Source: Eledone cirrhosa
Lineage: Eukaryota
Direction of reading: 5' to 3'
DNA length: 64,000 nucleotides
Assembly (NCBI GenBank): GCA_964016885.1
Contig: OZ024741.1
Span: forward strand, 114,390,001-114,454,000
Part shown: positions 2,398 through 63,215 of the stretch, piece after piece
How positions within the stretch are numbered: the first letter of the stretch is position 1
Layout of the letters: each line of letters starts with the position of its first letter
The notes under the pieces: generated by a model
Seen by the model: only the letters and a program-made list of their open reading frames with translations
Database searches by the model: none
What the model was told of the DNA's origin: nothing
Made by a program: the position numbers and the translations under genes

Positions 2398-2570
2398 ATA
2401 TTAGTGGAAGTAGTGGATCTACAGCGATCTCGGCCGTTTCGGCTAATTACCTCTTCAAGAAGAGGTGTGGTAGATCATTTACTTTCACTAATATAACAAC
2501 TCTGCATCTTACCATACATTGAGTACTTCTTGATTTGTGGTCTTCCCGGTCCCAGTACAACAGCCTATCA
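2398..2570. mobile_element. Hairpin HHR mini-element (degenerate)
   Basis: Arms atattagtggaagtagtggatctac / gtagatcatttactttcactaatat. Minus-strand TTGAAGAG..CGAAACggc..gctGTA at about 2412-2462. Tail with attgagtac. Confidence 0.55.
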
Positions 2571-2979
2571 ATATACGTATATATATATATAAATATAGAG
2601 TCTCCGGTGCTGAGACCGAGGAGACTACCAATCATGTGAGTACTTAATACATGGGGAGATGAAGAGAGGGTATAGAGATAGATAAAATCTCGATCGCGGT
2701 GGCAACTAGTTTCGGCTTATTGGCGCTGCGTTTGGAATTCTCTCTCTCTCTCTCTATATATATATATATATATATATATATATATATATATATATATATA
2801 TATATGGATGGCTTATATATGTAGTTGAGTCATTGAACCTCGAATATTTCGGCGAGGTTTGAAATGAAAGAGCCACAATATATCCATATATCCCAGAATG
2901 GCATTTTCTTTGAGGGTCTACCAATTTTGCCACTCAACGAACTTTAATTCTGACAGTAAATTATAATTTTTAATTTATA

Positions 2980-4105
2980 TACCAGGGCAGCAAATTTAGT
3001 AGAACGGCGAAATTAATTAAATCACCCTAGTACTTGACTAGCACTTTATTTTATCAACATCGGTAACACGAAATGCTCAGTTGACCTTGGCGCAATTTGA
3101 ATTGAGAATGTAAAGAGACAGAATGTATACCGCGACGTCATTTTATCTGCCAATCTGTCAATCTACCAACAGCAACATTTAAACCAATCCAACTCATCTT
3201 ATCTGCTATGAACTGAAAGCAACTCACGCGAAATCCAGCCACTTAATCCCAAACTGAGGCCATATATATATATTCAGGGCTGGCGGAAAAAAGCTCTATT
3301 TAAAATGTTTAATAATTTTTTTAATTATTGGTCGATTTTCAGAAAACATGTTTCACTTTGAACAGTGTAATTATAAAAGTTCAGTACAGTGTTACATTTC
3401 TACATAGGCACTAGCGTTGCCCATCAATATTTGTCATCGTTTGGGTATATCCTCGACTGACTTCACCAGGAACTCTTTCAGAGCTTTTGGTTTTGAGCTA
3501 TAAACTTCTTCCTTCGTCTAGCCCCTCAGGATGGCCATTCATGTGGATCTCGGCGACCCAGCCAGCATCCTGGAAATTGGACATCAAGCCACTTACAGAC
3601 AGTGCGTGCAAAACTCTGAGGACATAAATATGAATTCATTGATATTGTCACAATAGGCCAAAAGTTATAAGTAATTTTCAGTAGGGAGTTTCTTTCCACT
3701 CACCCTGTGAAAAGGGTAGTGGTGGTACAGGAAACGCACAAGGCCAGAAATTTGGGGGGAGGGGACAGTTGATTAAATCGATCCCGGTCCGTAACTGTTA
3801 CTTTATTTTATCGACCCCGTAAGGATGAAAAGCAAAGTTAACCTCGGCTGGATTTGAACTCAGATCATAAAGGGCCGTAACTCCATGCTGCAAAGCATGG
3901 CGTCCAACCCTCTATCAATACTGCCAATCCACCGCCCTGGTTCATACATTAATAATTGTTTCTACTTTGGGCACAAGGCCAGCAATTACCCAGTGCATTA
4001 CTGGTACTTTATTTTATCGACCCCGTAAGGATGAAAGGCAAAGTTAACCTCGGTGGGATTTGAACTCAGAGCATACAGGGAGGTAACTCTATGCTTCAAA
4101 GCATG
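2980..4105 (-). mobile_element. Cluster of tRNA-derived Deu/Nin-domain-like SINEs (about 2980-3170, 3735-3940, 3955-4105)
   Basis: Minus strand shows B-box gagttcaaatcc followed by gaggttaactttgcctttcatccttacggggtcgataaaataaagtaccag. Confidence 0.8.
3275..3707 (-). mobile_element. Internally deleted Tc1/mariner DNA transposon
   Basis: Imperfect TIRs cagggctggcggaaaaaagctc / gagtttctttccactcaccctg. Internal minus-strand remnant FPGCWLGRRDPHEWP resembles the region before the WPxxSPDL transposase motif. Confidence 0.7.
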
Positions 4106-6559
4106 ATAATAAAAAACAAGATAAAAATTTCAACACAGTCTACCTTTAATAGATATTAAAAAACCTTGTTTCCTCTATATTCAATTATATATAAGTGCTA
4201 TATGTAAATTCATATAAACATAAATCGTAACATGTATAAATGTCATATATATATATATAGAAATTCCATATATACATATAGGTACACGCGCGCGCTCTCT
4301 CTCACACACACACACATATAAGCCGATACGTTGTATTTCACAGTCGATATGTTAAAACAAAATTGCCAAAAATATTTGTTTCTTATCTTTGTTTTACTTT
4401 TATTAAAGATCGTACACATGTATTTGAAGCCAAATAAAATTCGTGAAAAGTTTTGAAATAAATAAATACATATTTACATATATGCAAAATAAATACAACA
4501 ATAAATATACCGTAATTAAAAAATGAAAACAATAGACAATAATGTGCAATATATACAGTCAACCTATTTTGCTTTCGTGCCGAAAGGCAGCGTTTTAAAA
4601 TATCAGTGGTTTTACAAAAAGGGTGTTTGAAAAACGCATATTATTCCAAATTATATAATTGAAATGATTAAATGATTAAAATACATAGCTCTTACCGGCA
4701 TTATATCCGACCCTCTGCTCTCGAACCCGTTGCAGGGAGTTTGCCCTTCCGAACCGAGTTTACCTCATTCACTAAAGAAATCATGAACATTTGTAAACGT
4801 ATATGTCTTTTCAACAGGCAAATCTTAATTTTTATCCCAATCGATGAATAGTACATTGATGATTTTGTAAGCCATTCGAAAAATTCTCAATTTGAGGTTA
4901 CTGGAATGAACGCGTGATTCTGGTTTGACCTTGTGCAAGAGTCTTCTATTATATCAACGGGTTGACGAATGTCTTCTGAATGGGATTTAGCAGACGCAAA
5001 TTACAGAAGCCTGCCTGCCTGCCTCTCTCTCTCTCGGTATCTATGTTTTCATTTGTGTCTATGCTTGTATTTATGTGCCATAACTTAACATTTCGTCAAA
5101 AATCGAGGCCGATAAAGTAAATACCAGATTTGAAAGTAATTACTGGGATCGGTATTATCAACTAAATTAAGGTAGTGCCCCAGCATAACTGTAGAAAAAT
5201 TATTGAAACCAGTAAGTAAAATTTACAAAAATATTGAACCTAAGTGCATACGACGTAAATACACACATACATTTACATATTTGGACACATGAACCTTTCC
5301 TAACATATTTACCAGTCCTGGAGCTGTTATTGGCAATCATGTCTGATTCCATTGCAGTATGTTGGCTCTTCTAAGCCAAGATTACCTCATCAATCAAAGA
5401 AATTATTAACATGTGTATCCCTATATGTATTCTCACTTGACAGATCGTTATGTTCCCTGATGTCAACCATCTGTGTAAGTCTGGCAAAAATATGTTGACA
5501 ATAGGAGTGTATATGAAGTCATATACAATATGTTTATGTACAAAATACATTACAAGTCTTGATTTGTGGTCGAACCACGCTATATGTTGAGTTAGGAAAC
5601 CATCAATATTTTACGAGAATAAATCAAATAGGGTAAAGTAACAAAAATGAAGCATTAAGTAAAGTAGTTATCTATATTTAGGCGGATGGTTATACGGATA
5701 TATGGTTCATGGGTTAATTAATGGTACTGTGGCTTTTCATATTCTAAAAGCCTGCATTGAAGCAGCTTATATTAAGCTAACGTATTTTGAAAATTACCCT
5801 TTTTAGTTAGAAGCTGTAGCTGGGCACAAAAAGAGCGGCAAAATGTAAACACTTTAAACAATTCTTCCGTACATCGAAAAATATAGATGATTCCTATGCC
5901 AGTGTTTTTAATCCTTAATTGAACAGAATAGCTAAGACGAATTAGATGATCCGGCTTGATTCAAATTTACCGTCATATTTCGAAACAACGACAATTAAAA
6001 TCGGATATTTTCAGATATAGTGGAGCGGATGTGACATTGGCTCCGTTGTTTCCTGCATCTACGGTTCATGATTACACCGACAGCATGAGTTTCTTATTCA
6101 TAGCTCATTTTGATTTCTGCTGCTGCTATTGATTTCTAATTTACCAATAAACTTTGTGGAAAGGGTAAAAATCAATTAAATCAACCCCATTACCAGACTG
6201 ATACTTTATTTTATCGAGCCCGGAAGGATGAAAGGCAAAGCATCAAAACAAATAGCACAATGGCATTTTATCCGACGCTCTACCAATCCCCATCTATCAC
6301 CCTAAATGATGCTCTTCATACTGCTGATACCTTATATGAGAAGTTGTTGTTACTGTATAACTCAAGGTCAAACCTCATTCAGCAAATCTATAATCAAAAA
6401 CGTTCCTTTGCTAAGGTATTGAATTATGATGGATCCTCCATCGTTTTTGACGATGACCACTCAATGAGTTGTTCGGTCAACATCAACAGACCGTCCGATC
6501 CATTAACGAGAAGGGGGCTGAGTATTACACACATGTGTATCATTCACGTACTTCTCAAG

Positions 6560-62024: not shown

Positions 62025-62950
62025 GTTACGTTAGAGATGAACAGCGTACGTGCAGGTTTGCTCAACGAGTATAAATTATATTCCGGAGAAAATGTAGAAA
62101 GGATGAATATAAAATGAAAGTGCTTTTTTTAAAAAAGGAATTTATTAGGTATTGACATATGTTTCTGTAACAGACGGAATACCTATGTATCGCTGCTTGC
62201 GTAATCATATGCTTGCGTAATCAAATGTAGATTTTAAGCGATGGTTACAGTATACTGTAACCATCGCTTAAAATCTACATTTTCATATTATAAATACTAC
62301 CAGGATTGAACGCCTGTCTCTATCCCCGTTTGACTGTCAAAATAGATATTAACATTCTTTATTAGTCTTAATTCTATCAACTCTTCTATTATTTACCTTT
62401 TAATACAAACTGCTATAGATAAAATGAGATTTCTGATTTCTTGATTCAATTCCCTAATGCATATACCAGCTGGCTACTAGCATTGATGTTATTTAGTAGC
62501 AATCGAAATCTCCCCCTTCCCCAATTGACACTTTATAATTAATACTACTGCACCAAATGACCAGCCCTGCCCACTGTCCAGTTGGTCAAGTAGAGATTAA
62601 AATTGGCACTCCCAAAATTCTTATTTAGATTTACTCATGGTATTCTCATTAGAAACCCATTATATACTTGTTTAGCAGTAAATTAATTTACCATCTGTCA
62701 TATACTATCCCCTCTGTTTCTTCCTCTATTACTAATATAAATACTTCAATTTTTCTGATTTTATCCAATTTATCCAAAATCTCTGAAGAAGTGACAACTG
62801 ATTATACATTTGCTATCGAATACTTGCTAACATTATATGATTACGCAAGCAGCGATACATAGGTATTCCGTCTGTTACAGAAACATATGTCAATACCTAA
62901 TAAATTCCTTTTTAAAAAAAGCACTTTCATTTTATATTCATCCTTTCTAT
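62025..62950. mobile_element. Complex inverted PLE-like insertion
   Basis: 62090-62210 is inverted at 62835-62950. Internal perfect palindrome centred cagtatactg at about 62252. Degenerate GAAAC-atat-GTC. Confidence 0.65.
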
Positions 62951-62989
62951 ATATATATATATATAATATGTGTGTGTGTATCCATATAT

Positions 62990-63215
62990 CCATATGTGGT
63001 TGACAGCTTTGACAGCTCAGAGAAAAGAGTACTCAATACCGAAGTAGAGTTTTAATATTCATTTATTAAGGCTAAATAGAGTCTTGTTACTCTGGAGTTT
63101 TGCTTATTTATCACAAGGTCATCAGACAAGAAAGTTCTTGTCTGATGACCCTGTGATAATCTGGCGAAACTCCAGAGTAACAAGACTCTCTATTTAGCCT
63201 TAATAAAATGAATAT
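62990..63215. mobile_element. Hairpin HHR mini-element, HHR at 63136-63185 (+)
   Basis: tcttgt-CTGATGA-c-cc..gg-c-GAAAC-tccaga-GTA-acaaga. Inverted degenerate copy at 63081-63131. Left tail with gtactcaatac. Confidence 0.75.

Follow-up and report, generated by a model that had tools for sequence, protein, structure and literature searches.

Hairpin sites of the window and their parent elements

The window, a stretch of 64,000 nt of the Eledone cirrhosa genome, contains seven inverted repeats that are flanked by (TA)n and carry a one-sided tail of 34-89 nt (Table 1). This fold-back layout had been described in a first-pass annotation and was found at all seven sites; likewise, the arms point outward from the centre at every site whose parent element gives the orientation. 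At 45001 the element is 1.7 kb long and is not a mini hairpin.

Table 1. Hairpins, hammerhead motifs and a tandem unit in the window.
Feature	Position	Strand	Inverted repeat and tail	Centre	Remarks
Family D old hairpin	2392..2570	+	2392-2500 + 70 nt	~2460	internal deletion in tail arm; hammerhead 3' half only
Family E mini hairpin	18132..18568	+	18132-18534 + 34 nt	18331/2, at GATC microhomology	5' UTR of a presumably Neptune-type PLE; hammerhead not found
Family F hairpin	33765..34040	+	33765-33991 + 49 nt	in T-arm region	source is a non-coding ~259-bp tandem unit
Family A mini hairpin	34727..34926	+	34727-34856 + 70 nt, from 34857
Family A tail-less arm	34727-34788	minus			parent +7..+68
Family A tail-bearing arm	34789-34926				parent +1..+137
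Type I hammerhead motif	34789..34841	+			stem I 5' strand begins at putative +1; core 34795; cut predicted after 34833
Tandem-plus-inverted 310-bp unit	35193..36490				outside the seven sites; four hammerhead motifs; retrozyme-like
Family G 1.7-kb palindrome	45002..46723	-	45057-46723 + 55 nt	45889/90	centre within endonuclease coding region of a PLE
Old family A relative	60679..60900	-	60756-60900 + 77 nt	~60828
Hammerhead motif, decayed	60783-60821				core 60821
Family C mini hairpin	62966..63215	-	63055-63215 + 89 nt	63133	tail-bearing arm on minus strand, GAAA mutated there
Type I hammerhead motif, intact	63134-63185	plus arm			core 63142; predicted cut 63179

A 200-kb sample of the genome, chosen arbitrarily, gave eight hairpins with arms of at least 30 nt, and each of three shuffles gave none; hairpin abundance is above chance, and the high density that had been noticed is confirmed. 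In independent data, raw DNA reads of other samples span the palindromic joints found in the 34727 family (depth 15-18 at 34788, a value that applies to the family and not to that locus). The raw reads aligned to the long copy were mostly 90-95% alike.

The sites are members of families of Penelope-like elements (PLEs) that occur throughout the genome, and a coding parent was found for three of them (A, E and G). Family A gave 1900 exact tail matches and 848 exact hairpins. Its parent L171 contains a TATA box at 3138, the +1 at 3167, the tail end at ~3305 and an ATG at 3354, followed by the reverse transcriptase (RT) and, C-terminally, an ORF of GIY-YIG type, the motifs of which were read by eye. 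The family E parent L295 has the same order of features, with Pfam matches to RVT_1 (4e-7) and GIY-YIG (2e-6). No Pfam or PDB match was obtained for the family A parent; it matched the E parent weakly in blastp (2e-8) and its atlas neighbours carry GIY-YIG. RT and GIY-YIG were read by eye in the family G parent, only the N-terminal part of the ORF was found for family B, and a coding parent was not seen for family F. In family A, pLTR copies lie ahead of the ORF in L171 and L172 and behind it in L114 and L177, while L295 of family E carries both, ahead of the ORF and at the 3' end. Cysteines in the linker before the endonuclease were seen in both the A and the E parent. The parents are EN+ PLEs, with RT and C-terminal GIY-YIG, a pLTR, an inverted 5'-truncated copy and a one-sided tail, and the PLE origin that had been suggested is borne out; judged by their motifs, the parents may belong to the Nematis or Neptune clade.

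The mini hairpins reproduce the parent sequence that begins sharply at a point designated +1 and stops at the tail end, ahead of the start codon; they are ~139 nt long in family A and ~238 nt in family E. These lengths speak against a reading in which the centre lies at a set distance from the tail, and that reading was abandoned. Since the centre varies around +1 from copy to copy, each hairpin was made at insertion and did not spread as a unit; together with the (TA)n flanks at all seven sites, this agrees with the earlier proposal of a (TA)n target and formation at insertion. The family G palindrome at 45001 would be an ordinary 5' truncation plus inversion, and longer palindromes would arise by the same reaction with a random stop.

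Hammerhead motifs and tRNA-like units

The layout as originally proposed included a hammerhead ribozyme. A strict hammerhead descriptor passed over the real motifs. Rfam gave 408 matches, and the 150 that were listed included no hammerhead family and were microRNA-type noise. Using our own descriptor, the core CUGANGA, GAAA and UH with three stems was found complete in the family A and family C mini hairpins, and a decayed motif is present in the old family A relative. In long copies of the family at 2398, the centre has the CTGATGA core on its upstream side. No hammerhead was found at 18137 or 33765 in the motif descriptor search, and at 45001 the nearest weak candidate is located 585 nt from the centre. 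Thus, the ribozyme is part of the layout at some of the sites only, and fold-back at its 5' end, claimed for 34726, 62990 and 2398, is seen at the first two and not at 2398. At the family level, the pLTR hammerhead motif is present in A and C, has a long loop II and a partly decayed core in B and D, and was not found in the family E parent.

Family F has a tRNA-like cloverleaf fold in place of the ribozyme, and ARAGORN calls a tRNA in one of 12 loci. A tRNA-derived SINE would carry a tRNA-related head at its 5' end and be transcribed by Pol III; here a cloverleaf is present, but the unit is tandem, extends upstream of the fold and has a T5 run after it. The centres are not at a start site. The centre at 33765 may reflect a stall at folded or modified RNA, the fold being tRNA-like and not a ribozyme. 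In the 310-bp unit outside the seven sites, the centre lies 120-190 nt from the nearest hammerhead cores. A retrozyme layout, with head-to-tail units that each contain a hammerhead, is not seen at the seven sites, but at 35193-36490 the layout corresponds to it; family F is tandem as well, but a hammerhead was not found there.

Hairpin centres and a putative transcription start

The 80 tail-anchored copies of family A comprise 45 hairpins, 26 long copies and nine others. Relative to a +1 that was assigned after the clustering had been seen, an arm ends at -1 to +3 in 33 of the 45 hairpins, and the farthest 5' point falls at -1 to +2 in 59/80 pairs of A, at -4 to +3 in 21/31 of B and at +1 to +3 in 14/18 of C and 6/6 of D, the counts of farthest points including 30 loci picked for likeness to the window copy. 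For family E, the spacing of a mini hairpin was recognized by eye in 13 of 28 listed inverted pairs and is exactly 116 nt in ten.

The best match to TATAWAWR lies at -29 to -33, with 8/8 positions in A, 7/8 in B, C and E and 6/8 in D; in the main reference copies, 0-3% of the remaining upstream windows score as high. In older copies of C and D the match is 5-6/8, as it is in up to 37% of other windows. Furthermore, 57 of 94 family A arms in a count by eye (25/37 by script) carry an additional G at -1, a position occupied by C in the genome, compared with 15% G inside fillers. The count could be inflated by fillers copied from G-ending arm sequence, as fillers often are. The extra G is not enriched in B (4/16), and is present in three of five hairpin arms and four of six solo arms of C.

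Because of the TATA-like box ~30 nt upstream in five families and the cap-like extra G in A, the mini hairpins are likely 'strong-stop' cDNAs, which would extend from an internal priming site to the transcription start. Judged from DNA alone, +1 would be the transcription start of the pLTR promoter and the extra G would reflect the cap.

Proposed joining of two cDNAs and its implications

Of 45 family A hairpins, 20 have a tail arm that extends further 5', 16 a tail-less arm that does so, and nine have arms of equal reach; in family B the tail-less arm reaches further in 14 of 24. Where both arms have the G, the +1 letter differs between them in 9/19 cases (4/5 by script), and in some of these joints the filler amounts to just 1-2 nt. 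Subfamily letters largely agree, with 51 T/T hairpins and eight mixed ones, compared to ~100 mixed expected at random on ~850 hairpins. Private variants occur in both arms once in A and twice in B, and on one arm 32 and 26 times, respectively; conversion between arms therefore looks minor. The outer ends lie at two TA-containing RNA sites, one of which yields the tail and the other not, and the end of the tail-less arm is fixed (+61 in 23/24 family B copies). Deletions on either arm and microhomologies were also observed. The two arms are likely one RNA that was reverse-transcribed twice, with the ends joined, although their agreement could also stem from conversion at a later time or from an active locus that supplied two RNAs, and arms could have been trimmed after insertion.

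The reading that we favour, with a probability of roughly 0.65, is that the mini hairpins are the first 130-240 nt of PLE transcripts, one RNA being copied twice to its capped 5' end and the cDNAs joined head to head. Each nicked strand of the (TA)n target would prime reverse transcription on one RNA, the two outer ends would represent two internal priming sites, and both cDNAs would run up to the capped 5' end at +1. The distal cDNA would displace the proximal one and the cDNA ends would be joined head to head by end-joining, where host repair would supply fillers and microhomologies. According to PMC11167929, the PLE enzyme PAc (Poseidon, Anolis) nicks and extends both DNA strands in vitro from two internal priming sites flanking the tail, as proposed here, and uses uncleaved RNA as template; the sections considered contain no account of head-to-head joining or of start-site-limited copies.

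Alternatively, a single cDNA could reach the RNA 5' end, add a few untemplated bases, fold back and prime its own extension, or self-priming could occur on an antisense template, the latter being the one model found in print (PMC3846280). The common subfamily letters would follow from this, and fillers of 3-20 nt could be loops. However, the tail-less arm is the one that reaches further 5' in 16/45 A and 14/24 B hairpins, the +1 letter often differs between arms, a mere 1-2 nt separate complete arms at their joint, and the tail-less arm has the fixed end that a priming site would give. The junctions thus point to two sense-template cDNAs, and self-priming is regarded as unlikely.

The boundary might also result from RNA processing, for instance as the 3' splice site of an intron in the 5' UTR, as YAG is found there in all five families (A-E) and, in D. 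virilis Penelope, the 5' end of hammerhead helix I marks the end of an intron (PMC4209133). This is very improbable given the TATA-like box at about -30, the lack of a fixed upstream-exon sequence among 50 listed fillers, and a clear pyrimidine tract not being seen in A or D. Similarly little probability is given to the insertion of perfect palindromes whose centres were later revised by cruciform cutting and repair, even though either-arm deletions and microhomologies are also expected from later repair and the 1.7-kb palindrome is nearly perfect; the extra G and the origin of the first palindrome would be left unexplained. MITE-like units, which have fixed terminal inverted repeats and move as a unit, are likewise improbable in view of the varying centres and outer ends and the existence of long retroelement parents, and an assembly artefact is opposed by the raw reads across the joints.

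Least probable is the earlier model, in which the folded ribozyme would arrest the RT and cause a change of strand. In A and C the centre coincides with the hammerhead 5' end, at the first base of stem I, but in B and D it falls within loop II, and in E, where a hammerhead was not found, it is just as sharp. Moreover, weak folding is predicted for the hammerheads (-7.5 and -10 kcal/mol, z about 0), 26/80 A copies extend through the fold, an extra G stands at -1, and the junctions look like two ends made independently. The hammerhead would be a passenger that starts at +1 by chance in some families.

Double priming on one RNA resembles L1 twin priming, in which two primers from two target strands use one RNA and the sequence is inverted without being duplicated, whereas here both cDNAs would cover the same RNA. 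Retroviral minus-strand strong-stop DNA is a short cDNA that also ends at the capped 5' end; it jumps and does not integrate, whereas here the short cDNA would integrate.

The described EN+ PLEs of Neptune and Nematis type (PMC8557442, PMC3846280) have in common with the present families the RT with C-terminal GIY-YIG, the cysteine linker, the (TA)n target, the inverted copy, the one-sided tail and, as far as A and C are concerned, a hammerhead in the pLTR; TATA and Inr were noted in a rotifer pLTR. In contrast to these, the commonest product here is the 5' UTR piece alone, from +1 to the tail, and tails reach 49-89 nt compared to 30-40 nt. Non-LTR retrozymes (10.64898/2026.07.22.740005) are non-coding PLE derivatives with type I hammerheads, which fits the 310-bp unit at 35193; they are head-to-tail tandems, whereas the mini hairpins are single, head-to-head and without their promoter. 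MITEs such as the palindromic frog Harbinger repeat (PMC5625713) are likewise self-folding repeats of ~200 bp with TA flanks and potential ADAR substrates, but the hairpins described here have no fixed centre or symmetric ends. In a search of mainly open-access literature, no paper joining Penelope-like, strong-stop and template was found, and the titles listed included none on the mechanism proposed here or on PLE-borne tRNA-like elements.

The origin of the inverted structures of PLEs has been named as an open question (PMC8557442), and the proposed model, if true, would account for this long-puzzling shape. Junction statistics from thousands of young copies separate the models, and a sharp prediction is provided for the existing in vitro system. 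In a broader picture, which is tentative and falls short of even odds, PLEs would integrate by double priming on one RNA, the commonest product would be an integrated pair of strong-stop cDNAs, with a centre that preserves the position of the capped start and, by misreading at +1, its modified first base, and a non-coding tRNA-like tandem element would take the place of a retrozyme in using this machinery. Hairpin centres would then map PLE promoters from DNA alone. In the same picture, the genome would have been seeded with on the order of 100,000 self-folding hairpins that might supply ADAR with substrates; the suggested connection with A-to-I editing is plausible. Unusually many dsRNA-forming loci were reported in octopus, in a study in which the repeats were unannotated (PMC5625713), and the hairpins are candidates for part of these loci.

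Hairpins in the window and in the genome

The layout proposed in the first-pass annotation, an inverted repeat flanked by (TA)n runs and carrying a tail on one arm (the tail arm), was recovered at all seven sites, with tails of 34-89 nt. The hammerhead motif also placed there was complete at two sites only and decayed at a third. In 20 arbitrarily chosen 10-kb stretches of the 3.0-Gb genome, eight hairpins with arms of at least 30 nt were found, compared with none in three shuffles; three of the eight passed a strict test for TA flanks, and scaling up gives roughly 100,000 hairpins per genome. 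The centre of family A, where both arms meet, was spanned by raw DNA reads of other samples, which show skips with fillers, and an assembly artefact is therefore disfavoured at the family level. Penelope-like elements (PLEs) are already known for truncated copies in inverted orientation, for tails, for (TA)n targets and for hammerheads (PMC8557442, PMC4209133); the hairpins are genuine, and known elements produce them in abundance. Editing has been described for Penelope of a lizard and for a palindromic repeat of a frog (PMC5625713).

Features of the window (114390001-114454000)
Feature	Position	Strand	Remark
Family D hairpin	2398		
Further hairpin or nested inverted repeat	9590-9670		
N gap	14547-14746		200 bases, within a 4.9-kb TA array
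Family E hairpin	18137		
Hammerhead-like cores	20824, 22394, 23368, 37461, 40677, 44304, 50138		probably other PLE ends
Broken PLE ORF remnant	24955-26283	minus	relative of family A and E parents
Family F unit	33765-34040		
Family A hairpin	34727		
Hammerhead	34789-34841		complete
Tandem 310-bp unit	35193-36490		hammerhead in each copy; two inverted pairs; retrozyme-like
Broken PLE ORF remnant	38087-39027	plus	relative of family A and E parents
Further hairpin or nested inverted repeat	42413-42594		
Family G palindrome	45001		
Hammerhead	60783-60821		decayed
Further hairpin or nested inverted repeat	62095-62949		
Family C hairpin	62990		
Hammerhead	63134-63185		complete

Coding parents and non-coding units

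Exact searches for family A gave 1900 matches to the tail and 848 hairpins; 80 tail-anchored copies comprised 45 hairpins, 26 copies extending upstream and 9 otherwise truncated. The longer copies can be followed into a coding element, and since the order in one of them (L171) is TATA box, hairpin start, hammerhead, tail end and start codon of an RT-endonuclease ORF, the short hairpin corresponds to about the first 139 nt of the 5' UTR. The parent of family E (6028 matches) has the same layout, with Pfam RVT_1 and GIY-YIG matches; a hammerhead was looked for in it and not found. In this parent (L293-L295) an upstream ORF overlaps the RT ORF in a different frame, which suggests a frameshift. 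The fold-back point of the family G palindrome is within the endonuclease coding sequence of a third PLE, of which other copies extend further; it is an ordinary truncation. The family G parent (L316, L317) has an asparagine-rich N-terminal stretch resembling the N-rich inserts of rotifer PLEs (PMC3846280). The tail motif GTATTGAGTAC is common to families B (seen in flanks), C and D.

Family F (L239-L262) is a non-coding unit, tandem at 259 bp (120 exact matches to the junction), which holds a 72-nt tRNA-like cloverleaf and inserts inverted, tailed and (TA)n-flanked like the PLE families; no coding partner was seen. In 31 copies, the one in the window and 30 selected for an exact match to the tail region, the tail arm begins at fold positions 55-66 in 21 cases, immediately 3' of position 56, the T-loop adenosine, and joints are mostly at a CATG palindrome. 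Our guess is an RT stop at folded or modified tRNA-like RNA. Another copy of the retrozyme-like 310-bp unit, L108, has a different centre; retrozymes are regarded as PLE derivatives (10.64898/2026.07.22.740005).

Position of the centre

Centres shift by a few bases among copies, yet seldom go beyond a sharp 5' point in the parent, the putative transcription start (+1). A TATA-like box precedes +1 by a constant 29-33 nt in five families, more weakly in old C and D copies, and YAG spans the boundary in all five. The pLTR promoter known from D. virilis Penelope is, in contrast, TATA-less (PMC2377424); TATA and Inr motifs, with an antisense self-priming model, appear in PMC3846280. Among 94 family A arms reaching G+2 with filler and without read-through, the base at -1 was G in 57, where the parent has C (by eye, 50 of 139 loci); a scripted count gave 25/37, against 15% G in fillers. 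In arms with the extra G, the +1 base was A (29 arms), T (15), G (11) or C (2). Given the known behaviour of reverse transcriptases, we take the extra G to be cap-templated and the variation at +1 to be a misread modified first nucleotide. The extra-G signal is absent from family B (4/16).

It had been proposed that reverse transcription stalls at the hammerhead fold. However, +1 lies at the stem I start in A and C and falls within a long loop II in families B and D, no ribozyme was found in E, and hammerhead folds were no more stable than shuffles. Because +1 has no constant position relative to the ribozyme, is fixed relative to the TATA-like box and in family A is preceded by G, and the folds are weak, the sequences indicate that the centre likely marks a capped transcription start. 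At family B loci L171 (minus strand, about 7412-7560), L113 and L004, the 5' strand of hammerhead stem II contains the TATA-like box, and loop II the putative start; only read-through RNA could thus fold into a complete ribozyme.

Origin of the two arms

Both arms would arise if one RNA were reverse-transcribed twice, which fits the arm ends, +1 mismatches, outer sites and shared letters. It also fits in vitro work on a PLE, in which synthesis began at two internal sites and both strands were extended (PMC11167929). Outer ends lie at TA-containing sites, at +60 to +75 or +139 in A, at +61 in 23/24 copies of B, and at +204 or +238 in E. Subfamily letters of paired arms were T/T in 51 and mixed in 8, where random pairing would give about 100 mixed on about 850 hairpins, a hairpin count from a different pattern. 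Two RNAs from one locus may instead have served as templates, and later repair may have shaped arms or centres.

Simple fold-back, in which one cDNA folds on itself and the tail-less arm is copied from the tail arm, is improbable: the tail-less arm cannot template the tail arm, so the latter should always reach furthest 5', yet the tail-less arm did so in 16 of 45 family A hairpins (tail arm, 20) and 14 of 24 in family B (tail arm, 5), arms that both carry the extra G differ at +1 in 9/19 loci (4/5 by script), and in some hairpins only 1-2 nt separate two complete arms. A literature search of incomplete coverage found neither start-site-limited hairpins nor double priming described for PLEs. 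Reading of one RNA twice up to a putative capped start is testable and better supported than the ribozyme stall first proposed.
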